Shown here: positions 11,699 through 63,830 of the stretch, in pieces
Layout: every line of letters starts with the position of its first letter
Numbering within the stretch: position 1 is the stretch's first letter
Source: Escherichia coli
GTDB lineage: Bacteria; Pseudomonadota; Gammaproteobacteria; Enterobacterales; Enterobacteriaceae
Direction: 5' to 3' (one strand)
DNA length: 64,000 bases
Assembly (NCBI RefSeq): GCF_029227855.1
Contig: NZ_CP074356.1
Notes under the pieces: model-generated
The model's database searches: none
What the model saw: the letters and a program-made list of their open reading frames with translations, nothing else
What the model was told of the DNA's origin: nothing
Translations under genes and position numbers: made by a program

Positions 11699-12945
11699 CA
11701 GGAGCGTGCTCCTTTTTTCGCGTATTCGCGGCTGGTGGCTTTCTCTTCCGGAGTGGTGGCGCTCTGGGCTTCCACTACTTCCACTTTCGCCCCTTCGGTC
11801 AGGCGATCAATGCCGTCTGTCACTACGCGGTCGCCCGCAGAAATACCTGCGCGGATCACCACTTTCTGACTGTCCTGAATGCCCGGCGTCACCAGATGTT
11901 TGCTGACCTTGTTTTCGCTATTCAGCACCCAGACAAAATGGCCTTCATTGCCCATTTGCAGGGCGGCGGTGGGGATCACCACGGCGTTTTGTTCGGTGTC
12001 GACTAACATACGCGCGTTAACAAACTGATTGGGAAACAGTGCATCATCCTGATTATTAAAGCGTGCTTTCACTTTAATCGTACCGGTAGTGGCATCGATT
12101 TGGTTATCGAGGCTTAACAGCGTGCCTTCACTTAATTTCTTCGAGTTGGTGCGATCCCAGGCTTCAACAACCAGCGGTTTTCCGGCTTTTTGCGCCTGTA
12201 CTACGGTAGCGATATCGCTTTCCGGCAGGGTAAAGACTAAATCGATAGGGTGCGTCTGGGTGATCACCACAATCCCGGTGGTATCACCACTGGAGATTTG
12301 GTTACCAACATCAACCTGCTTGAGACCAACGCGACCATCGACTGGTGCGGTGATGCGGCTCCAGTCGAGTTGCAGCTGCGCGCTGGCGACGCTTGCTTCA
12401 TCAGCCTTAATGGTGCCTTCGGTTTCACTGACCAGCGCCTGTTGGGCATCCAGCTCCTGACGAGATACGAGATTGGTTTTTACCAGTTGTTGATAACGCG
12501 CCAGGTCACGGCGGGCGTTGGCAAGCGTGGCTTTATCTTTTGCCAGTTGGCCCTGGGCTTGTGCTAATGCAACTTTGAACTGGCTTGGGTCAATTTCTGC
12601 CAGTAAATCGCCTGCTTTGACCTGCTGGCCTTCCTGGAAATGTAACGCTATCAGTTGGCCGTCCACGCGGCTGCGCACCGTAACGGTATTAGCGGCGGTA
12701 ATGGTGCCAAGCCCGGTGAGGTAACGCGGAACTGCCTGTTCTACGGCGGTCGCCGCCTGAACCGGGGCTAATGGGCCGGAACGCATACCACGGCGACCAC
12801 CCGCTGGCGATTGCTGCGCTTGTTTCGTCGCCCCTGGGGCTGCACTCCGGGAGTCATTGCGGCCTTGCCAGAACCAGAATGCGGCGATGGCGGCGATAAC
12901 CACCACGATTACGATTACCCAACGGGATTTATAACTGCCTTTCAT
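11698..12945 (-). CDS. mdtA: RND efflux membrane fusion (periplasmic adaptor) protein MdtA
   Basis: 415 aa from ATG at 12945 ([27 protein letters not shown]...), matching remembered MdtA; the ORF-track 5' extension to 13092 is rejected. Confidence 0.9.
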
Positions 12946-12998
12946 CGTTAAGAGTTTCTCTTCCTGAAACGTTTCGCGGAATGATACTAGTGTAGCCA

Positions 12999-13016
12999 GC
13001 CAATAAGGGAGAAAAA
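12999..13016 (-). promoter_or_regulatory. Candidate BaeR-binding box in the mdtA promoter
   Basis: Minus strand reads TTTTTCTCCCTTATTGGC, close to the reported BaeR consensus TTTTTCTCCATDATTGGC, about 55 bp upstream of the mdtA start. Confidence 0.5.
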
Positions 13017-13175
13017 TGGAGGAATTATGAAACACTATCGGGAATCGTCTGAATGGCGGGCACATTTGCGAGCACGCATCCAGTAATAACACATGAAACT
13101 ATTTTATCTACGCGTTAGCGATAGACTACGTGCATGGCGAAAGGAGGTAAGCCGATGATTTCAGCGGGACGCTGA

Positions 13176-13320
13176 AACGGGAAAGCCCCTCCCGAGGAAG
13201 GGGCCATAAATAAATAAGGAAAGGGTCATGATGAAGCTACTCATCATCGTGGTGCTCTTAGTCATTAGCTGGCCAGCTTACTAAGACTACCAGGGCGGGG
13301 GAAACCCCGCTCTACCCTCA
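13176..13320 (-). ncRNA. Sib-type antisense sRNA, copy 1 (antitoxin of ibs)
   Basis: Minus-strand promoter TTGACA (13355..13350), 17-bp spacer, TACTTT (13332..13327); transcript fully overlaps ibs copy 1; GC-rich hairpin (13186..13205) followed by a U-rich stretch on the minus strand. Ends are approximate. Confidence 0.5.
13228..13284 (+). CDS. Type I toxin Ibs, 18 aa hydrophobic peptide (MMKLLIIVVLLVISWPAY)
   Basis: ATGATG start followed by a hydrophobic 18-codon ORF, typical of Ibs toxins, preceded by AAGGAAAGGG. Confidence 0.75.
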   Translation: MMKLLIIVVLLVISWPAY

Positions 13321-13506
13321 CTCCTGAAAGTATGCCTTCACGATAAGATTGTCAATCTGCAGGCTTTGCAGTCTGCGATCCTGCCAGCAAATATTCTTTG
13401 CGAGACGTTACGCAATAATCACACTGGAAACTATTTTATCCGCAAGTCAGCGATAGACTGCATACAGGGCGAAAGGAGGTAAGCCGACGATTTCAGCGGG
13501 ACGCTG

Positions 13507-13648
13507 AAACGGGAAAGCCCCTCCCGAGGAAGGGGCCTTAAATAAGGAAAGGGTCATGATGAAGATACTCATCATCGTGGTGCTCTTAGTGATTAGCTAC
13601 CCAGCATACTAAGACTACCAGGGCGGGGGAAACCCCGCTCTACCCTCA
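13507..13648 (-). ncRNA. Sib-type antisense sRNA, copy 2
   Basis: Same architecture as copy 1: minus-strand TTGACA (13683..13678), 17-bp spacer, TAATTT (13660..13655); hairpin plus U-rich 3' end near 13507. Ends are approximate. Confidence 0.5.
13556..13612 (+). CDS. Type I toxin Ibs, 18 aa (MMKILIIVVLLVISYPAY)
   Basis: Paralogue of copy 1 at the same position in repeat unit 2. Confidence 0.75.
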   Translation: MMKILIIVVLLVISYPAY

Positions 13649-13835
13649 CTCCTGAAATTATGCCTTCACGATAAGATTGTCAATCTGCAGGCTTTGCAGT
13701 CTGCGATCCTGCCAGCAAATATTCTTTGCGAGTCGTTACGCAATAATCACAGAGGAAACTATTTTGTTCACGCGTTAGCGATAGACTGCATTCAGGGCGA
13801 AAGGAGGTAAGCCGACGATTTCAGCGGGACGCTGA

Positions 13836-51832: not shown

Positions 51833-52006
51833 ATTTGCGACCATTCCTGGAAAAATGGAGCCATACTTAGGAACAATGCTACTGCAATCCACAACGAAGC
51901 GGCGTAACATTACAAGTAATTCAGTAATCAATTCAGGGTAATTGATGCTGGCGAAAAAAATCGAACAAGCTATAATTCAGCAACCATTTTACAGGTGGAT
52001 GAAATA

Positions 52007-52900
52007 ATGACGAATTTAAAAGCAGTTATTCCTGTAGCGGGTCTTGGGATGCATATGTTGCCTGCCACTAAGGCGATTCCCAAAGAGATGCTACCCATCG
52101 TCGACAAGCCAATGATTCAGTACATTGTTGACGAGATTGTGGCTGCAGGGATCAAAGAAATCCTCCTGGTAACTCACGCGTCCAAGAACGCGGTCGAAAA
52201 CCACTTCGACACCTCTTATGAATTAGAATCTCTCCTTGAGCAGCGCGTGAAGCGTCAACTGCTTGCGGAAGTGCAGTCCATCTGTCCTCCGGGCGTGACC
52301 ATTATGAACGTGCGTCAGGGCGAACCTTTAGGTTTAGGCCACTCCATTTTATGTGCACGACCTGCTATTGGTGACAACCCATTTGTCGTGGTGCTGCCAG
52401 ACGTTGTGATCGACGACGCGAGTGCCGACCCGCTGCGTTACAACCTTGCTGCCATGATTGCGCGCTTCAACGAAACGGGCCGCAGCCAGGTGCTGGCAAA
52501 ACGTATGCCGGGTGACCTCTCTGAATACTCTGTCATCCAGACCAAAGAGCCGCTGGACCGTGAAGGTAAGGTCAGCCGCATTGTTGAATTTATCGAAAAA
52601 CCAGATCAGCCGCAGACGCTGGACTCAGACATCATGGCCGTTGGCCGCTATGTGCTTTCTGCCGATATTTGGCCGGAGCTAGAACGCACTCAGCCTGGTG
52701 CATGGGGACGTATCCAACTGACAGATGCTATTGCCGAACTGGCGAAAAAACAGTCCGTTGAAGCCATGCTGATGACCGGCGACAGTTACGACTGCGGTAA
52801 AAAAATGGGTTATATGCAAGCGTTCGTGAAGTATGGACTACGCAACCTGAAAGAAGGGGCGAAGTTCCGTAAAGGGATTGAGAAGCTGTTAAGCGAATAA
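52007..52900 (+). CDS. galF: UTP-glucose-1-phosphate uridylyltransferase-like regulatory subunit GalF
   Basis: 297 aa from ATG at 52007 ([30 protein letters not shown]). Confidence 0.95.
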
Positions 52901-53157
52901 TGAAAATCTAACCGAATGTAACGGTTGATAAGAAAATTGTAACGGCAGTGAGGATTCGTGGCGAAAGTAATTGTTGCGAATATTCCTGCCGTTGTTTTAT
53001 ATAAACAATCAGAATAACAACGAGTTAGCAATAGGATTTTAGTCAAAGTTTTCCAGGATTTTCCTTGTTTCCAGAGCGGATTGGTAAGACAATTAGCGTT
53101 TGAATTTTTCGGGTTTAGCGCGAGTGGGTAACGCTCGTCACATCGTAGACATGCATG

Positions 53158-53196
53158 CAGTACTCTGGTAGCTGTAAAGCCAGGGGCGGTAGCGTG
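53158..53196 (+). promoter_or_regulatory. JUMPstart element with ops (GGCGGTAGCGTG) upstream of the O-antigen cluster
   Basis: CAGTACTCTGGTAGCTGTAAAGCCAGGGGCGGTAGCGTG, 39 bp; ops core at 53185..53196, about 100 bp upstream of the first O-antigen gene. Confidence 0.75.
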
Positions 53197-53297
53197 TCTA
53201 GTTCAATCCGAGTAAATTAAAAATAATAGTTTTGGAAAAATTGTCTTTATAATGTTAACAAAGCAAGAGTAGGTAATACATATCGTTTTGACATGTA

Positions 53298-54362
53298 TTG
53301 CACTTAAAGAAAACATATCAATTAAATTATCATACTATGCTTATTTACAATACAATATTTGTCTTTTTATCATTTCTTGCACTTTTAGATTTAAGTCATA
53401 AAAAAAATTTGTTATTTTTTTTATTTCCTTGTTTTATATTACTACTGTTAACTGCTATTCGTGGTAATGGAGGAGATGATTTTTATGTGTATGAAAAATA
53501 TTTTAACGCTCTTCCTAATGAAATTTTTAACTATGGATATGGTTATTATAGTTTAAATATGTTTGTTAAAAATTTTGGAGAGTATCCTTTTTTTATTATC
53601 ATTTCATCAATAATATGCATAACTCTTCAGGCAATTTTTATTTATCGTGAGACTGAAAAACCAACTCTGGTTTTGTTTTTATTTTATTCAACTAGCTTTT
53701 TATGGTTGGATTTTATTTTAATTAGGCAGTCAATTTCCGTTGGTTTTTTTATTTTGGCAATATCATTTTTCAAAAATAATAAAAAAATTTTTGCCTGTCT
53801 GTTTTTGATTCTATCTTCATTATTTCATGAGACCGCTATTTTTGCTGGAGTAGTTTTTTATATTTTATACAGAGCCGAGAAGGCAGGTTTTCTTTTTACA
53901 ATTGGCTCGGTATTAATTATTGCACCATTTTTATCTGATATAATCACTATCATAAATGATATGACGATAAAAAATAATAATATAACTCTCTATCTGGAGC
54001 AGCGTACCTTACCAAGCATTGCAAATGTAATTGAGTTAACAATAGCATTTGTTGCATTTTATATAATTAATAAAAATTCCGTGTTTAGAGAGAGTAATGA
54101 GTATAAAATATATAAAAGTATACTATATTCTTCACTATGCATACTATTATTGTCTTATACAATCCCATCATTGGCTAGATTCCTAGAATTTTTTCGTTTT
54201 TTTTACTTCATTTTAGTAGTTAGAATGCTAATGCAATTTAATGTGAGAAGTAGATATCTTTTTTTTGTAATTATACTAGCGTACTGTTTTATGAGACTTA
54301 ATAGCTTCATAAATCAATTTGATTCTGGTTTTGATTATATTTATAATGGAAAAATACTGTGA
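53298..54362 (+). CDS. wzy: Polytopic membrane protein, candidate O-antigen polymerase Wzy (EpsG-like)
   Basis: 354 aa, very hydrophobic with multiple predicted TM segments, AT-rich codon usage; first gene after galF. Assignment as Wzy rather than Wzx is a judgement from size and composition only. Confidence 0.5.
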   Translation: MHLKKTYQLNYHTMLIYNTIFVFLSFLALLDLSHKKNLLFFLFPCFILLLLTAIRGNGGDDFYVYEKYFNALPNEIFNYGYGYYSLNMFVKNFGEYPFFIIISSIICITLQAIFIYRETEKPTLVLFLFYSTSFLWLDFILIRQSISVGFFILAISFFKNNKKIFACLFLILSSLFHETAIFAGVVFYILYRAEKAGFLFTIGSVLIIAPFLSDIITIINDMTIKNNNITLYLEQRTLPSIANVIELTIAFVAFYIINKNSVFRESNEYKIYKSILYSSLCILLLSYTIPSLARFLEFFRFFYFILVVRMLMQFNVRSRYLFFVIILAYCFMRLNSFINQFDSGFDYIYNGKIL

Positions 54363-55228
54363 CTATATTATTTTCTGTTATTACTCCTACCTATAATAGG
54401 GCAGATGAGTTAAGCTCATTGTTCAAAAGTCTTAATAATCAAGAGGGTATCGAATTCGAATGGGTGATAATTGATGATGGTTCTGAAGATCATACACAAC
54501 AACAAGTTAATGACTTCAAAAAACATAATAAAAACATCACAGATATAAAATATTTTTATCAAGAGAATAAAGGTAAAAATTCTGCTGTAATTAGAGGGAT
54601 TCAGAATGCTTCCGGCGATTATATTGTGGTGATTGATAGCGATGATTATTTATTGGATGATGCTTTAATAAGAGTAAAAAATATATTAGATGAAGAGAGT
54701 GTTAATGGCGATGATAAAATAATTGGCATTTCAGGTGTTAAAGTTAAAAGTGATTTCACACCTGTAAGTTATATTAGCAACTCTTCGGCATTGCGAATGA
54801 GTCATTATGAGTGGTTTTATAAGTTTCAGCGGTTAGGTGATCGGATTGACTTTTATAAAGCCCGAGTGCTTAAAGAGAAAATATTTAATGCATTTCCAAA
54901 GGAAAAGTTTATTACAGAAGACGCATATTGGTTGGACCTCGTTGGGGAAAAAATTTTCATAAATGAACCGTTATTAGTAATAAAATATTTAGAGGGAGGG
55001 CTTAGTTCAAGTTACTCATTACTCCTGCGAAACAGTCCTTTTGGAACATCATATTATTATTATATTCTATTAATTAATGCTGATAATTTTAAAACAAAAC
55101 TTAAAGCATCATTATTGATGATGTACTATATATTTGTTACCATATTAAAAAATAGTAATATAGTAATTGGGTTATTGTCACTCATGTTATTTCCAATCTT
55201 ATGTATAATAAAATTCTTTCGAAGCTAA
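54359..55228 (+). CDS. Glycosyltransferase family 2
   Basis: 289 aa; MTILFSVITPTYNRADEL...WVIIDDGSEDHT (GT2 DXD region). Confidence 0.8.
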   Translation: MTILFSVITPTYNRADELSSLFKSLNNQEGIEFEWVIIDDGSEDHTQQQVNDFKKHNKNITDIKYFYQENKGKNSAVIRGIQNASGDYIVVIDSDDYLLDDALIRVKNILDEESVNGDDKIIGISGVKVKSDFTPVSYISNSSALRMSHYEWFYKFQRLGDRIDFYKARVLKEKIFNAFPKEKFITEDAYWLDLVGEKIFINEPLLVIKYLEGGLSSSYSLLLRNSPFGTSYYYYILLINADNFKTKLKASLLMMYYIFVTILKNSNIVIGLLSLMLFPILCIIKFFRS

Positions 55229-56406
55229 GAAACACTATTCTTCCTTGTTTCACTCTAGGAACGTCGACGATTTTTTTCTTTGCGATAGGTTTCTTCTTTG
55301 GTATAAATGAAAAATCTGATTTTATATTATTTACGATTACTTTACTTTCAACCATTGGAACTATTCTTCAAATTTCTTGGTATGGATTGTTACCTCGTTT
55401 GAGTTCGAGTTCAAGCTTAAAATTTTTAGGTTATATTATTTCTAATGGTTTTATCTACTGTTTGATCATAAATACCCTACCATTTGTGATTTTAACTCTG
55501 AACTTTACAAACTTTTTTTTTGCAGGGTGTCTCTACTCTTTATTTTTCCAACTGCATCAGTATCTTAAGAATGTTTTTGTTTATCTTGGGCGGCTTAAAG
55601 CATTTTATATTTTTGATGCCATCGGCTATGCCATATGTGTTATAAGTATTACTGTGTTCCAAAAATATCTATTACATTCAAACCCTCAGGATTTATTTGT
55701 TCTGCTTTCGTTATGTTGGCTTTTAATAGTAATTGGTGAGGTCGTACATCTTAAACTATATATTAATTATGACATATCTGTAAAGCCTGTTTATGTATGT
55801 ATTATTCCAACATGGAAAACAAGGATTGCAAACAGTGGTTTTATTGTGAAAGATCTTTTAACTGCGTATGCGCTTAATATACTTGCGCCGGTAGGCGGTT
55901 TAACTATATATTCATACGCAAGTAAGATTTCAACAGCTGTTTTTCAATTATTCTCTCAATATAAAGTAAATGCTTGGGTGGGCAGCATAAGAAAAAAAAG
56001 GTTAAGTGAAGTAGAATACGGTGATATAAAAAAAGTGTCATTATCTTCTTCAATTGATTTTTGTATTTTTCAGATCGTTGCATGGCTTTGTATCTTACCT
56101 ATTATATTATATAATGGCACAAATATAAATATTGAATGGTATGTATTAAGTATTATTACTGGTGGATTACTATACTTGATACAATCAATGGAACAGCCTT
56201 ATGCTAGATTTATTTATATGTCACGACATTTTACCGATATTGCCATCGCAGATGGAATAAATTTTATTATTTATATGGTTTTCTTTTCATATGGATTGTT
56301 AATGTTAAATGTATATTATCTATTTTTAGGTATTATATTAGCTCAATTATGTTCACTAGTTACTTATTCTTTATTTTGCAAGAGGTTGTTTAGGAATGAT
56401 ACCTAA
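55201..56406 (+). CDS. wzx: Polytopic membrane protein, candidate O-antigen flippase Wzx
   Basis: 401 aa with about 10-12 hydrophobic segments; the ORF overlaps the upstream GT2 gene by 28 nt, so the true start is uncertain. Confidence 0.5.
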   Translation: MYNKILSKLRNTILPCFTLGTSTIFFFAIGFFFGINEKSDFILFTITLLSTIGTILQISWYGLLPRLSSSSSLKFLGYIISNGFIYCLIINTLPFVILTLNFTNFFFAGCLYSLFFQLHQYLKNVFVYLGRLKAFYIFDAIGYAICVISITVFQKYLLHSNPQDLFVLLSLCWLLIVIGEVVHLKLYINYDISVKPVYVCIIPTWKTRIANSGFIVKDLLTAYALNILAPVGGLTIYSYASKISTAVFQLFSQYKVNAWVGSIRKKRLSEVEYGDIKKVSLSSSIDFCIFQIVAWLCILPIILYNGTNINIEWYVLSIITGGLLYLIQSMEQPYARFIYMSRHFTDIAIADGINFIIYMVFFSYGLLMLNVYYLFLGIILAQLCSLVTYSLFCKRLFRNDT

Positions 56407-57052
56407 AATAATACATTACTGTTGGTTCGGGGGCGGGGATAAACCTGCTTTAGTTAAAAAATGTATGGGGACATGGGAAAAAGTCTTGCCTGGTTGGGAT
56501 ATTATTGAATGGAACGAAGATAATTCGCCAGTATCAGTTCCTTATGTAAAAAATGCGTTAGAAGATAAACGATATGCATTTGCTGCTGATTATGTAAGAT
56601 TCTATGCGCTAAAAACCATGGGAGGAGTTTATCTTGATACTGATATGGAATTGATCAAAGATATTTCTCCGCTTTTGAATAATAAATTCTTTACAGCGAA
56701 AGAATCAGAGGAGCTTATTAATGCAGCAATAATGGGGAGTGAAAAAGATGGGAGATTTGTCAATTTAGTAATCCAAGAATTACAATTGCGCACAGGACAT
56801 ACTTACGAATCTATACCAAAAATACTTACTGATATATTTAATACAGGAAATGGATTTAAAGATGAAACAACCATTTATGATAAGGAATATTTTTATCCTT
56901 ATAATCCCTTTGATAATAAACGAAATGAAGTTAAACAACTTTTCTATTGTGATATAACTCCTCATACTTATGCCATTCATCACTGGCAACAAAGTTGGCA
57001 CTATACATTTCTTGAACGGGTTATTAACAGAATAAGGATGCTTATAAAGTGA
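56396..57052 (+). CDS. Glycosyltransferase (sugar-transferase DXD family, GT32-like)
   Basis: 218 aa; MIPKIIHYCWFGGG...YLDTDMELIKD, typical of the Gly_transf_sug family. Confidence 0.7.
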   Translation: MIPKIIHYCWFGGGDKPALVKKCMGTWEKVLPGWDIIEWNEDNSPVSVPYVKNALEDKRYAFAADYVRFYALKTMGGVYLDTDMELIKDISPLLNNKFFTAKESEELINAAIMGSEKDGRFVNLVIQELQLRTGHTYESIPKILTDIFNTGNGFKDETTIYDKEYFYPYNPFDNKRNEVKQLFYCDITPHTYAIHHWQQSWHYTFLERVINRIRMLIK

Positions 57053-57819
57053 GTGGAAATAAATTAATAAGCATAATTATGGCATCAAATAAAATAGATG
57101 AGTTTCTACCTCTGGCAATAAACTCAATTCTTGAACAAACATATCAAAATATCGAAGTGATTTTTGTTGCTAATGGTGATAAAGCTCACTGTATTAGTTT
57201 GTATATAAAAAATTTTTTTAAAGATGAGCGAATCAAAATTTATGAAACACCAATAGGCCAACTATCACATGCGCTTAACCTCGCTATTTCTAACGCATCG
57301 GGTGATTATATTGCCCGCATGGATGCTGATGACATTAGTTTACCTGAGCGATTAACTAAACAGTTGGAATATTTAAGGTCACATAATTTAGATATGGTAG
57401 GTTCGGATATAATTCACATAGATACAAATGGAGAAGTTATTGGGATTAAACATTATCCCAAAGGGTTAAATAAAATTAACAAACAATTGTATTTTAGGAA
57501 TACTTTTTCGCATAGCACTATACTAATCAAAAAAAAAATACTCATTTCAGCGAGAGGCTACAATGCTGGATTTAATTCAGAGGACTATGATCTCTGGTTA
57601 AGATTAAGACGGAAGAATATCAAATGGGATAATATGGAGGAATGCCTCTTAAAATATCGTATACATAGTGCATCTACACAAAGGAAGAGATTGGGTTACG
57701 CCGAAGTCGCGGGTTATTCTCTACGTGAATTTTTATTACGTTTCTCATTTATTGGTATTTTTTCTGTTTTAATTCATATTGTTAAAGTTTATATTAAATC
57801 ATCTTCTCATGAAGAATGA
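57049..57819 (+). CDS. Glycosyltransferase family 2
   Basis: 256 aa; ISIIMASNKIDEFLPLAINSILEQTYQNIEVIFV...DADD. Confidence 0.8.
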   Translation: MSGNKLISIIMASNKIDEFLPLAINSILEQTYQNIEVIFVANGDKAHCISLYIKNFFKDERIKIYETPIGQLSHALNLAISNASGDYIARMDADDISLPERLTKQLEYLRSHNLDMVGSDIIHIDTNGEVIGIKHYPKGLNKINKQLYFRNTFSHSTILIKKKILISARGYNAGFNSEDYDLWLRLRRKNIKWDNMEECLLKYRIHSASTQRKRLGYAEVAGYSLREFLLRFSFIGIFSVLIHIVKVYIKSSSHEE

Positions 57820-58010
57820 TTTATATTTTAGGATAATTAACTATTTAAATTAGAATCATTTGAGCAAACTTAGGTAACTCTATATAATACACAGCATTGC
57901 AAATGAGTAACATATTGGAATAGCCATTCAATGGTAATATTACAAATTGCTTTAATAATAATGGATCATTTAGCTATGGTGCAATATTTTCTTCTTGCGG
58001 AATTTTACCC

Positions 58011-59129
58011 ATGAAAATACTTCTAATAGGAAACCTCTCTGATACTATTGTATTATTCAGAGAGAAGTTAATAAGAGAGTTGATTAAAAAAAATATCACG
58101 GTTTATACATTAACGATGGATTCTAATCAAGAAAACTTCAACATCATTGCCAGCTACGGGGCCAAACCTGATTCATACTCTTTTTCTCGTTCAGGTACAA
58201 ATCCTTTTTCTGATATTTGGGATACATACAAATTAAATAAAAAAATAAAAAAAATAAAACCTGACGTTGTTCTTTCTTTTTTTCCAAAACCTGTTATTTA
58301 TGGTTCTTTAGCTGCTAAAATAGCAGGGGTGAAAAAAATATTTAGTCTCTTGGAAGGACTTGGTTTTTGCTATACGAATAATTCTAGTCCAATTAGTCTC
58401 AAAAGGAAGATATTAAAATGTATACAAACAATGCTATACAGAATTAGCTTGCCATTATGTAATAAAGTTTTTTTCTTAAACAAGGATGATTTTAATGATC
58501 TCATTATTGATAATAAAATAACCATAAAGAATTATGAAATAATTGGTGGAATTGGTGTTAATTTAGAAGAGTACAGTTATAAGCAACCAAAGATTGATAA
58601 AATACATTTTGGGATGGTTTCGCGATTACTAGTCGAGAAAGGTATTCGCGAATTTGTTTTGGCCGCGAGCCAGGTGAAAAAAAAATTTCCTGAGGTCGAA
58701 TTTAGTATTGCTGGCGCAATTGATGATAATCCTGGTGGTATAACCGAAGATGAGATAAAAAAATGGGAATCAGAGGGGGTTGTCAAATTTTTAGGTCAAG
58801 TTTCTAATGTTAAAAGTTATTTATCTAATATCTCTGTTTTCGTTTTGCCATCTTACCGAGAAGGCGTACCAAGAAGTACTCAAGAAGCGATGGCTATTGG
58901 GCTTCCAATAATTACAACTAATGTTCCTGGTTGTCGTGATACAATTATCAATATGGTAAATGGAATCATGATCCCACCATTTGATATTCAGTCTCTAGCG
59001 GACGCAATGGTATTTTTTATACAAAACCCTCAGAGTATAACAATAATGGGTAGAGAAAGTAGAATAATTGCAGAGAAAAAGTTTAATGAAATAGAAGCCG
59101 CGAATAAATTACTTAAATTAATAATCTAA
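58011..59129 (+). CDS. Glycosyltransferase family 4 (GT-B, retaining)
   Basis: 372 aa; C-terminal EX7E-type region PSYREGVPRSTQEAMAIGLPIITTNVPG. Confidence 0.8.
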   Translation: MKILLIGNLSDTIVLFREKLIRELIKKNITVYTLTMDSNQENFNIIASYGAKPDSYSFSRSGTNPFSDIWDTYKLNKKIKKIKPDVVLSFFPKPVIYGSLAAKIAGVKKIFSLLEGLGFCYTNNSSPISLKRKILKCIQTMLYRISLPLCNKVFFLNKDDFNDLIIDNKITIKNYEIIGGIGVNLEEYSYKQPKIDKIHFGMVSRLLVEKGIREFVLAASQVKKKFPEVEFSIAGAIDDNPGGITEDEIKKWESEGVVKFLGQVSNVKSYLSNISVFVLPSYREGVPRSTQEAMAIGLPIITTNVPGCRDTIINMVNGIMIPPFDIQSLADAMVFFIQNPQSITIMGRESRIIAEKKFNEIEAANKLLKLII

Positions 59130-59159
59130 TATATAGATTAACATCTACCGGAGTGTTTT

Positions 59160-60179
59160 ATGGCTATTCTTGTTACTGGCGGAGTTGGTTATATCGCTTC
59201 GCACACTATTATAACTTTACTAGAAAAAGGTGAAGAAGTTATAATACTTGATAATTTATCAAATTCATTCTACGAATCTTTGCATAAAGTTAAAAAAATT
59301 ACCGGGTATGATAGTCGATTTTATAGAGGTGATATACTTGACAAAGAGCTCTTACGCAAAATATTCAAAGAAAACACTATTTCTGACGTAATTCATTTTG
59401 CAGGCTATAAATCTGTAAAAGAATCCATTTCTCACCCATTGAAATACTATCAAAATAACGTTTCTGGTACATTGTCATTAATAGATGCGATGGGGGAGGC
59501 TTGTGTAAAAAGTTTGATTTTTAGCTCATCAGCTACAGTATATGGTGAACCAGAAAGAATACCTTTAGATGAAAATTGCAGAATTGGAGGTACAACGAAT
59601 CCATACGGCACGTCCAAGTTATTCGTAGAAAAATTCCTTATTGATTATTCACATGCATTCCCTGATTTTAGAACTACCATCTTAAGATATTTCAACCCTG
59701 TCGGTGCTCATCCATCTGGTGAAATAGGGGAAGATCCCAATGGTATACCTAACAACTTAATGCCATATATATGTCAAGTTGCTATAGGGAAGCAACAACA
59801 CCTCACTATCTTTGGTAGCGATTATCCAACAAAAGATGGTACAGGTGTTCGTGATTATATCCATGTCATGGATCTTGCTGAAGGGCATGTTGCAGCGTTA
59901 GAACATCGAAATGAAGGAGCAAATTGCAAGATCTATAATCTCGGGACGGGCACAGGATACTCAGTACTGGAACTTGTTGATGCATTTCAAAGAGTTACTG
60001 CACGTAAAGTTCCATATGTATTCAGTAAACGACGACCTGGTGATATTGCTGAGTGTTGGTCTGATCCTTCTAAGGCTTATAGGGAACTTGGATGGAAAGC
60101 GAAGCGTGGGTTGGAAGAAATGGTTCGAGATGCCTGGAATTGGCAACAAAAGAATCCGAACGGTTATATAAAAGCATGA
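59160..60179 (+). CDS. gne: NAD-dependent UDP-hexose 4-epimerase (GalE/Gne family)
   Basis: 339 aa; Rossmann motif VTGGVGYIASH and catalytic YGTSK; UDP-GlcNAc versus UDP-Glc specificity cannot be told from sequence alone. Confidence 0.8.
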   Translation: MAILVTGGVGYIASHTIITLLEKGEEVIILDNLSNSFYESLHKVKKITGYDSRFYRGDILDKELLRKIFKENTISDVIHFAGYKSVKESISHPLKYYQNNVSGTLSLIDAMGEACVKSLIFSSSATVYGEPERIPLDENCRIGGTTNPYGTSKLFVEKFLIDYSHAFPDFRTTILRYFNPVGAHPSGEIGEDPNGIPNNLMPYICQVAIGKQQHLTIFGSDYPTKDGTGVRDYIHVMDLAEGHVAALEHRNEGANCKIYNLGTGTGYSVLELVDAFQRVTARKVPYVFSKRRPGDIAECWSDPSKAYRELGWKAKRGLEEMVRDAWNWQQKNPNGYIKA

Positions 60180-60297: not shown

Positions 60298-61704
60298 ATG
60301 TCAAAGCAACAGATCGGCGTAGTCGGTATGGCAGTGATGGGGCGCAACCTTGCGCTCAACATCGAAAGCCGTGGTTATACCGTCTCTATTTTCAACCGTT
60401 CCCGTGAGAAGACGGAAGAAGTGATTGCCGAAAATCCAGGCAAGAAACTGGTTCCTTACTATACGGTGAAAGAGTTTGTTGAATCTCTGGAAACGCCTCG
60501 TCGCATCCTGTTAATGGTGAAAGCAGGTGCAGGCACGGATGCTGCTATTGATTCCCTCAAGCCGTACCTCGATAAAGGTGACATCATCATTGATGGTGGT
60601 AACACCTTCTTCCAGGACACCATTCGTCGTAACCGTGAGCTTTCTTCAGAAGGCTTTAACTTCATCGGTACCGGTGTCTCCGGTGGTGAAGAAGGTGCGC
60701 TGAAAGGTCCTTCCATTATGCCTGGTGGGCAGAAAGAAGCCTATGAACTGGTAGCGCCGATCCTGACCAAAATCGCCGCAGTAGCTGAAGACGGAGAGCC
60801 ATGCGTTACCTATATTGGTGCCGATGGTGCAGGTCACTATGTGAAGATGGTTCACAACGGTATTGAATACGGTGATATGCAACTGATTGCTGAAGCCTAT
60901 TCTCTCCTGAAAGGCGGCCTGAATCTCTCTAACGAAGAACTGGCACAGACCTTTACCGAGTGGAATAACGGTGAACTGAGTAGCTATCTGATCGACATCA
61001 CCAAAGATATCTTCACCAAAAAAGATGAAGACGGTAACTACCTGGTTGATGTGATCCTGGATGAAGCAGCAAACAAAGGTACGGGCAAATGGACCAGCCA
61101 GAGCGCGCTGGATCTCGGCGAACCACTGTCTCTGATTACCGAGTCTGTGTTTGCACGTTATATCTCTTCTCTGAAAGATCAGCGCGTTGCCGCATCTAAA
61201 GTTCTTTCTGGTCCGCAAGCGCAGCCGGCAGGCGACAAAGCTGAGTTCATTGAAAAAGTTCGCCGTGCGCTGTATCTGGGCAAAATCGTTTCTTACGCTC
61301 AGGGCTTTTCTCAGCTACGCGCCGCGTCTGAAGAGTACAATTGGGATCTGAACTACGGCGAAATCGCGAAGATTTTCCGTGCTGGTTGCATCATCCGTGC
61401 GCAGTTCCTGCAGAAAATCACCGATGCATATTCCGAAAACCCGCAGATCGCTAACCTGCTGCTGGCTCCGTACTTCAAGCAAATTGCCGATGACTACCAG
61501 CAGGCGCTGCGTGATGTCGTTGCTTATGCGGTACAGAACGGTATCCCGGTTCCGACCTTCGCCGCTGCGGTTGCCTATTATGACAGCTACCGTGCTGCTG
61601 TTCTGCCTGCGAATCTGATCCAGGCTCAGCGTGACTATTTTGGTGCGCATACTTATAAGCGCATTGATAAAGAAGGTGTGTTCCATACTGAATGGCTGGA
61701 TTAA
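60298..61704 (+). CDS. gnd: 6-phosphogluconate dehydrogenase, decarboxylating
   Basis: 468 aa; [27 protein letters not shown]; GC content abruptly higher than the upstream O-antigen genes. Confidence 0.95.
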
Positions 61705-61730
61705 TCTGATTTAACCAACAATAAATTGAG

Positions 61731-61760
61731 GCCCGGCGTATATTACGCCGGGCTTTTTTG
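61731..61760 (+). terminator. Rho-independent terminator of gnd
   Basis: GCCCGGCGTATATTACGCCGGGC hairpin followed by TTTTTTG. Confidence 0.75.
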
Positions 61761-61764
61761 TGCA

Positions 61765-62472
61765 CAGAAAACCCCCAGCTAGGCTGGGGGTTCCGGAAAG
61801 CTTTCAGCTTTGAGCCAGTTATTAAAACCCCTTTTGATTTGTTAAAACACTTTGCGGTCTGGCAACTGCAAGTGTCAAACAAGAAATCAAAAGGGGGTCC
61901 CAATGGGGAACGAAAAGAGCTTAGCGCACACCCGATGGAACTGTAAATATCACATAGTTTTTGCGCCAAAATACCGAAGACAGGTGTTCTACAGAGAGAA
62001 GCGTAGAGCAATAGGCAGTATTTTGAGAAAGCTGTGTGAGTGGAAAAGCGTACGGATTCTGGAAGCTGAATGCTGTGCAGATCATATCCATATGCTTGTG
62101 GAGATCCCGCCCAAAATGAGCGTATCCGGCTTTATGGGATATCTGAAAGGGAAAAGCAGTCTGATGCTTTACGAGCAGTTTGGTGATTTGAAATTCAAAT
62201 ACAGGAACAGGGAGTTCTGGTGCAGAGGGTACTACGTCGATACGGTGGGTAAGAACACGGCGAAGATACAGGATTACATAAAGCACCAGCTTGAAGAGGA
62301 TAAAATGGGAGAGCAGTTATCGATTCCCTATCCGGGCAGCCCGTTTACGGGCCGTAAGTAACGAAGTTGGATGCAAATGTCAGATCGTGTGCGCCTGTTA
62401 GGGCGCGGCTGGTAAGAGAGCCTTATAGGCGCATTTGAAAAACCTCCGGCTATGCCGGAGGATATTTATTTT
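61765..62472 (+). mobile_element. IS200-family insertion sequence (IS200/IS605 family); boundaries approximate
   Basis: About 0.7 kb element between gnd and ugd carrying a tnpA ORF; left-end hairpin CCCCCAGCTAGGCTGGGGG and right-end hairpin CCTCCGGCTATGCCGGAGG. gnd and ugd are directly adjacent in K-12. Confidence 0.7.
61903..62361 (+). CDS. tnpA: IS200 transposase TnpA (HUH Y1 transposase)
   Basis: 152 aa from ATG at 61903; MGNEKSLAHTRWNCKYHIVFAPKYRRQVFY...HIHMLVEIPPK (HuH motif) is characteristic of IS200 TnpA. Confidence 0.85.
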   Translation: MGNEKSLAHTRWNCKYHIVFAPKYRRQVFYREKRRAIGSILRKLCEWKSVRILEAECCADHIHMLVEIPPKMSVSGFMGYLKGKSSLMLYEQFGDLKFKYRNREFWCRGYYVDTVGKNTAKIQDYIKHQLEEDKMGEQLSIPYPGSPFTGRK

Positions 62473-62654
62473 TACCAATTATCTTATAGACTAAATTTCA
62501 CTGCTTAATATTAACTTAATAAATATCAGCTATTCTTATAAAGAAATTCTGAATTGTTTTTCGTTGCGTTGACCATCCAACAACGTAGCGTTAAAACTTT
62601 TAGCTCTTATCAGGATGCTAAAAACATCATGATTCACAGTTAAGTTAATTCTGA

Positions 62655-63830
<1,176 letters not shown>

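Follow-up and report, generated by a model that had tools for sequence, protein, structure and literature searches.

An IS200C copy between gnd and ugd

The window, by which we mean the whole 64,000-nucleotide stretch of E. coli DNA that was analyzed, carries the housekeeping genes gnd and ugd, and a complete 711-bp copy of the insertion sequence IS200C lies between them (Table 1). The gnd-ugd spacer measures 959 bp in the window and 248 bp in both K-12 (TG1) and the O23 strain 13TMH22, which have no element at this position. The two genes are thus adjacent in K-12, as an earlier note on this DNA had claimed, and the insertion is located where that note had placed it, just past the gnd terminator, with the T6 of the terminator adjoining the left end at 61760. 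The ends were set where copies in differing contexts cease to be similar, using the window copy and 18 further E. coli copies (19 copies at 18 distinct sites), and by alignment to an empty site. Across the sampled copies, likeness always begins with GTGCACAGAAAACCCCC and finishes with GGAGGATATTTATT, and the window copy differs from the 19-copy consensus by 1 nt. This comparison also decides which T's are assigned to the right end and which to the flank, and the window copy alone also fits an element of 712 bp ending in TTATTT. The boundaries in the earlier note, 61765-62472, therefore give the approximate location correctly but miss the exact ends, as the left one lies 5 nt inside and the right one 2 nt beyond the true 61760-62470.

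Strain 13TMH22 provided the empty site. Its gnd is 100% identical to that of the window, its O23 cluster is 99.6% identical over 11.3 kb, and it contains no IS between gnd and ugd. In this strain the same terminator hairpin is followed by T9, and in the window the corresponding sequence reads T6, the 711-bp element and T3 with nothing duplicated, which indicates a clean insertion without target duplication. From 62473 to 62700, a stretch of 228 bp whose last 37 nt lie in ugd, the window and 13TMH22 are 100% identical. The earlier note had proposed comparing the gnd-ugd junction with that of related genomes, and this strain shows an empty site and a clean junction. As a separate observation, wzzB of 13TMH22 is annotated as an incomplete pseudogene with its C-terminus missing, and an IS1203 transposase gene begins 56 nt downstream (locus 12842-13801); another IS probably disrupts this chain-length regulator directly in that strain.

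Table 1. Features of the gnd-ugd region of the window
Feature	Position	Strand	Description and basis
gnd (6-phosphogluconate dehydrogenase), upstream neighbor	60298..61704	+	Pfam 6PGD, 1.2e-135; NCBIfam gnd equivalog
gnd intrinsic terminator, the insertion target	61731..61759	+	Stem-loop 61731-61753 (10-bp GC-rich stem, 3-nt loop) and T6 at 61754-61759; DNA fold
IS200C	61760..62470	+	GTGCACAG...GGATATTTATT; no target-site duplication; ends from 19-copy comparison and empty site
Left-end subterminal hairpin	61770..61792	+	10-bp perfect stem; DNA fold
Rfam RF01405 STnc490 match (IS200 tnpA 5' region)	61770..61893	+	144.6 bits
Small hairpin	61797-61811	+	Single-strand fold
Putative antisense art200/STnc490 region	about 61822..61911	-	Position inferred from the description in PMC4513863
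Long stem-loop burying the Shine-Dalgarno sequence AAGGGGGT	61828..61896	+	Fold; equivalent to 'nts 69-138' of IS200 (PMC4513863)
tnpA, 152-aa Y1 HUH transposase	61903..62361	+	Pfam and NCBIfam profiles; identical to WP_000526135.1
Right-end subterminal hairpin and tail	62443..62470	+	8-bp hairpin at 62443-62461 and 9-nt tail ATATTTATT closing the element; fold
ugd upstream region, undisturbed	62471..62663	+	First three T's are the rest of the gnd terminator T9
ugd (UDP-glucose 6-dehydrogenase), downstream neighbor	62664..63830	+	NCBIfam PRK15057 equivalog, 1.2e-267

The only ORF with a family match in the element is tnpA, and there is no tnpB. TnpA matches Pfam PF01797 Y1_Tnp (3.8e-38; 130.7 bits, cut-off 23) and the NCBIfam equivalog NF033573 transpos_IS200 (1.9e-43; 147.7 bits, cut-off 55), and these strong matches, along with the name given in RefSeq, agree with the assignment to the IS200 family that had been made from the letters alone. 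Alignment to the solved chains 2ec2 and 2f4f located the motifs H61-I62-H63, Y125 and Q129, the last of which lies four residues after the tyrosine; DHIH and YIEEQ in the solved TnpA chains are the counterparts of the HUH and Tyr/Gln motifs. The ISHp608 TnpA chain 2a6m also matches (E = 3.9e-19). Profiles and structure-guided motifs thus support the single 152-aa HUH transposase described in the earlier note, and the residues suggest that tnpA is catalytically intact, with the activity and expression of this copy being predictions. Two other readings of the gene were rejected. A REP-associated tyrosine transposase (RAYT) would be expected to exceed the cut-off of 80 bits for NCBIfam NF047646 REP_Tyr_transpos, which TnpA matches at 32.2 bits, and a 169-aa ORF from TTG 61852 is a mechanical extension, as ATG 61903 has a Shine-Dalgarno sequence and fits the 152-aa RefSeq protein.

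The name IS200C was taken from RefSeq annotation, where thousands of PGAP records label a TnpA identical to this one 'IS200/IS605-like element IS200C family transposase'. All of the features that were examined agree with membership in the IS200 group of the IS200/IS605 family, namely the Y1 HUH TnpA, its catalytic motifs, the tnpA-only content, the subterminal hairpins, the lack of target duplication, the left-end target and the strand. A search with the left-end hairpin found no second copy within the window. Taken together, these results identify an ordinary, intact and already annotated IS200C copy, and the first identification was correct.

Terminal inverted repeats are absent from the element, which instead has subterminal hairpins at both ends. 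These hairpins had been noticed in the initial reading, and folding placed them at 61770-61792 and 62443-62461 with DNA-fold z-scores of -6.5 to -3.8, with no shuffle folding equally well. Together with their 5' A-runs, the two hairpins make up a direct repeat that is 78% identical and in the same orientation. The right-end hairpin scores as terminator-like on both strands, and the left-end hairpin is, by analogy, the presumed binding site of TnpA. In the map published for IS200 of Salmonella, a terminator hairpin occupies nts 12-34 and a stem-loop masking the Shine-Dalgarno sequence occupies nts 69-138, and the former is reported to act as a bidirectional terminator, protecting tnpA against transcription from outside the element (PMC4513863); the positions of the left-end hairpin and of the long stem-loop in the window agree with this map.

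The match to the Rfam STnc490 model is full length (model positions 1-124) and far above the gathering score of 56. The model fits the tnpA-sense strand, whereas STnc490/art200 has been described as an antisense RNA (PMC4513863), so the match locates the region and not necessarily the strand of the small RNA. Weak Rfam matches at the gnd terminator (MicC, L20 leader, Leu leader and others; 21-25 bits) fell below threshold and were set aside as terminator look-alikes. With respect to replication, the cumulative GC skew of the plus strand is +0.53 over the window, which indirectly indicates that the tnpA-sense (top) strand has lagging-strand-template sequence, as is expected for the family. Five copies in one E. 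coli genome would likewise all be co-oriented with replication, provided that the record starts at dnaA.

Distribution of IS200C and its occurrence at gnd-ugd

The earlier note had backed its marker proposal with the rare transposition of IS200-family elements. IS200C itself is not rare in E. coli: a megablast search of 5,426 complete genomes found it in 3,099, each with 1 to 35 places. Occupation of the gnd-ugd spacer is far from universal in the species, as an IS was located there in 96 and 102 of the 5,426 genomes with queries of two lengths. The element at this position is already known, as RefSeq annotates IS200C between gnd and ugd in about 100 of these genomes. Our comparison covered 60 of the approximately 102 occupied genomes as a list and seven occupied loci by inspection, including that of the clinical isolate JNEC-KY178 from Japan.

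The listed genomes fall largely into two groups. An O102-like group accounts for 52 of the 60 and has 18-35 places that match a gnd-IS-ugd query; the one member inspected, strain 7/2, carries an O102 cluster. The second group, which we refer to as EpsG/WbsX, contributes seven genomes with one or two places matching the same query: two in A19, OkiPb01685 and B19, while in A29, BS15R-A, USMARC-51688 and EC11 the gnd-ugd copy is the sole IS200C. The five members of this group that were inspected (A29, USMARC-51688, EC11, BS15R-A and A19) share one O-antigen cluster, with an EpsG family protein and WbsX glycosyltransferases, and one gnd allele. Their hosts and sources are capybara, cattle, cow dung, vampire bat and human on four continents, and their his alleles differ. 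TnpA carries S85G in all five loci and additionally K33R in A29.

Among the 60 listed genomes, JNEC-KY178 is the only one with the flanks of the window. This isolate has an O23-type cluster and 24 places that match a 708-bp IS200C query, and over the last 8.5 kb of the window it shows a single difference, at 57730, which falls in a glycosyltransferase gene annotated at 57049-57819. The O23 O-antigen cluster of the window (52001-60000) is low in G+C, at 0.32-0.35 compared with about 0.5 elsewhere. We infer that the window lineage (O23, near JNEC-KY178) acquired its gnd-ugd copy recently.

At least three unrelated haplotypes, O23, O102 and EpsG/WbsX (loci L004, 6206-7165, and L023-L027, 5606-6564), carry the IS at one and the same nucleotide of the gnd terminator, and each of them reads T6, IS, T3. 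Between these haplotypes, gnd differs at 61-67 of 1407 nt (4.3-4.8%) and ugd at 27-47 of 1167 nt (2.3-4%), whereas the IS copies differ at 3-5 of 711 nt (0.4-0.7%). The simplest reading of these sequences is independent insertion at one nucleotide, which points to recurrence. The alternative is one ancient gnd-ugd insertion, after which recombination near the O-antigen locus swapped the flanks or carried the IS along. Some of the evidence is of the kind that this alternative predicts, as the IS in the EpsG/WbsX group rides one gnd allele through strains with differing his alleles and is the sole IS200C in the single-place genomes; to judge from these sequences, hitch-hiking of the IS with the O-antigen block does occur inside a haplotype. 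Between haplotypes, however, SNPs lie only 15 nt to the left and 4 nt to the right of the IS, and a single old insertion is unlikely because crossovers would have had to fall repeatedly within those few bases. Nor would such an insertion account for the tenfold lower divergence of the IS compared with its flanks, even in genomes that have no second copy and offer no donor for gene conversion. Furthermore, 13TMH22 combines an identical gnd and spacer with an empty site. We consider a single ancient insertion improbable for these reasons, and an ancestral insertion shared with the O102 strains in particular was rejected, given that wzzB and the his operon also diverge by about 3-4%.

Independent insertion bears directly on the earlier idea that the insertion might be a useful lineage marker, which is weakened by these results: occupation of the same base in at least three unrelated haplotypes reflects either homoplasy or tracking of the O-antigen block. 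Because the target is recurrent and the element travels with recombining O-antigen/gnd haplotypes, its presence is not a clean clonal marker. IS200C at gnd-ugd is thus unsuitable for this use on its own, and combined with the flank haplotype it marks the O23 lineage around JNEC-KY178.

Target sites of the IS200 group

At all 18 independent E. coli sites, the left end lies directly after a run rich in T, itself preceded by a GC-rich hairpin, and most of these sites are 40-65 nt past the stop codon of a co-oriented gene. Within the left flank, T is present at -5, -2 and -1 in 19 of 19 copies and at -4 in 18 of 19, with -3 being variable, which yields TTNTT in 18 copies and TAATT in the exception. 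The right end of the element itself reads TTATT, except in one copy that reads TTTTT. A hairpin with a dG of <= -13 that ends within 9 nt was detected at 17 of the 18 E. coli sites, in comparison with 44 (4.4%) of the 991 TTNTT sites that the window contains. Stem and insertion point are 5-9 nt apart, and the right-end hairpin is separated from the terminus by 9 nt. In the empty gnd-ugd spacer, TTNTT occurs at 14 positions over both strands, and the three haplotypes all use the same one.

We also scanned other taxa with the left-end hairpin as the query, using one genome per species, which returned 120 loci with 62 unique left-end-type sites. These sites come from Vibrio ruber, a Bacillota metagenome-assembled genome (MAG), Mailhella/Desulfovibrio, Peptococcaceae, Oxalobacter, Brenneria, Fibrobacter and several others. 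The criterion for a terminator did not require an unpaired T tail, as an earlier criterion missed bidirectional terminators in which an A-tract pairs with the T-tract. By this measure, 57 of the 62 left ends adjoin a terminator-like sequence, in a sample that consists mostly of a few many-copy genomes and of draft contigs that break inside the IS, and strong hairpins are also present at four of the remaining five. Control positions drawn from the same loci were terminator-like far less frequently: 19 of 3000 random positions (0.6%), 71 of 2000 positions after TT (3.6%) and 150 of 1500 positions after T-rich octamers (10%). A TnpA homologue begins at about nt 143 in 21 of the 25 sites that have >=170 nt downstream. 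The hairpin and T-run of an intrinsic terminator are thus almost always the address of the IS200 group, with the left end just past them.

Related hairpins were encountered as well. In gut Clostridia MAGs, CCACCAGCTAGGCTGGTGG followed by ATATTTATT forms a right-end-type hairpin near many contig ends (20 of the scanned loci), pointing to a related element in many copies, in which the right hairpin would be equivalent to the enterobacterial left hairpin. The hairpin variant CCGCCAGCTAGGCTGGCGG is found in a conserved and apparently non-IS chromosomal context in Citrobacter, Enterobacter, Kluyvera, Pluralibacter and Enterobacteriaceae RIT691 (five loci), where it is preceded by another hairpin. 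On the plasmid pNMBU-W05E18_02 (NZ_CP042880.1, 28459-29466), two IS200C copies are in tandem, with two T's between the first right end and the second left end; the possibilities are that this right end was used as a target and that both copies entered one T-run two bases apart.

Proposed mechanism and consequences

Transposases of the IS200/IS605 family with a Y1 HUH domain act on single-stranded DNA, bind subterminal hairpins of the top strand and excise that strand as a circle. Our preferred reading, in which we have high confidence, is that the window contains an intact IS200C with a TnpA of this kind, that it inserted into the T-tract of the gnd terminator as a standard site of the IS200 group, and that it is most likely a near-neutral passenger. 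By analogy to IS608 and ISDra2, TnpA would cut 5' of G61760 and 3' of T62470, and the excised single-strand circle would insert 3' of a short T-rich target, leaving that target unduplicated. The sequences show this target to be TTNTT, which matches the TTATT of the element's own right terminus; in the window it was the T-tract of the gnd terminator, interrupted after the sixth of its nine T's. Folded in single-stranded DNA, the terminator probably presents a structured target that resembles the right end of the element, which would account both for the independent hits at the same base in at least three haplotypes and for the recent gain in the window lineage. Once in place, tnpA would be kept almost silent by the left-end terminator, the stem-loop that sequesters its Shine-Dalgarno sequence and antisense RNA, as in related elements.

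A different view of the insertion is that it alters transcription of ugd and wzzB, through its hairpins and terminators or through an outward promoter, and hence O-antigen chain length or the supply of precursors for 4-aminoarabinose or colanic acid. Between gnd and ugd, the element does add a terminator-like left-end hairpin as well as a right-end hairpin followed by a T-rich tail, the left-end hairpin is reported to stop impinging transcription (PMC4513863), and the insertion persists in the large O102 group. However, the element sits past a complete gnd terminator of which the stem and six T's remain, and the 193 bp that precede ugd match those of the empty-site strain 13TMH22. A simple consensus scan of 61600-62720 revealed no sigma-70-like promoter, which is a weak negative, and a general target preference explains the site without a need for selection. 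We therefore regard a regulatory effect as quite unlikely, and the effect predicted from the sequence is at most slightly less read-through from gnd into ugd. Least probable of all is that the copy is domesticated, no longer mobile and retained chiefly for small RNAs (art200 and processed 5' tnpA RNA) that act in trans: its 5' region has the full-length STnc490 match and trans-acting roles are published for Salmonella (PMC4513863 among the sources), yet tnpA retains all catalytic residues, copy number is 1-35 per genome with recent gains such as the window copy, and the literature examined gave no E. coli target. The copy is most likely a near-neutral passenger, and for the window itself the insertion is of little consequence, with no sign of an effect on its neighbors.

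The element was also compared with known systems. It does not differ from IS200C of E. coli as annotated in RefSeq by PGAP, with which it shares an identical TnpA, the same ends and the same hairpins. IS200 of Salmonella enterica (707 bp) and IS1541 of Yersinia follow the same plan, with a left-end terminator hairpin at about 12-34, a Shine-Dalgarno stem-loop at about 69-138, the art200/STnc490 antisense RNA, tnpA and a right-end hairpin; relative to the former, the 711-bp window copy has small sequence differences. The evidence on regulation and small RNA functions comes from Salmonella or from E. coli carrying Salmonella IS200, and not from the window copy.

IS608 of H. pylori and ISDra2 of D. 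radiodurans resemble the window element in their Y1 HUH motifs, direct-orientation subterminal hairpins, unduplicated target, insertion on the 3' side of a short specific sequence adjoining the left end and link to the lagging-strand template. The single-strand mechanism, the short specific targets and the lagging-strand bias are established for these two elements. In contrast to the window element, which has no tnpB and uses TTNTT at the end of a hairpin and T-run, they carry tnpB and use TTAC or TTGAT as targets, with no reported need of a neighboring hairpin. REP elements and their RAYT (TnpA-REP) proteins offer another likeness, in that Y1 HUH proteins recognize hairpins on the chromosome whose stems are preceded on the 5' side by a short guide sequence, which is conceptually close to an IS200 transposase that would recognize host terminator hairpins. 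The window element differs from these systems in being a mobile IS with its own ends and not a REPtron.

How the left ends come to lie on terminators can be explained in more than one way. We place even odds on the possibility that IS200-group transposases actively home to intrinsic terminators, with a hairpin in single-stranded DNA and TT 5-9 nt beyond it mimicking the right end of the element (hairpin plus ATATTTATT). Homing would account for the adjacency to terminators across phyla, for the three hits on the gnd terminator at one base and for tandem copies behind a right end. An alternative for how the target is exposed is that the non-template T-tract is bared in the paused, terminating transcription bubble. 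Survival of harmless insertions may contribute to the adjacency as well, and it is insufficient alone because it leaves the single-nucleotide precision unexplained. A 2025-26 preprint reported an excess of terminator-like sequences just upstream of ISs, with the strongest signal for IS200/IS605, and read this as limiting transposase expression (10.1101/2025.07.22.666184). In Yersinia, IS1541 has been described between pheL and pheA, which is likewise just past an attenuator (PMC3082878). In the literature examined, we found no explicit account of IS200/IS1541 insertion at terminators, only the statistical association, a table entry of 'T-rich region' and the incidental IS1541 case. Terminator targeting is thus a modest side result that has been partly reported before. 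The location of IS200-group left ends on the T-tracts of terminators nonetheless provides a clean and testable target rule for a group whose target choice has hitherto been described loosely, and a mechanistic basis for the targeting, if there is one, would account for the rise of these elements to dozens of copies while doing little harm.
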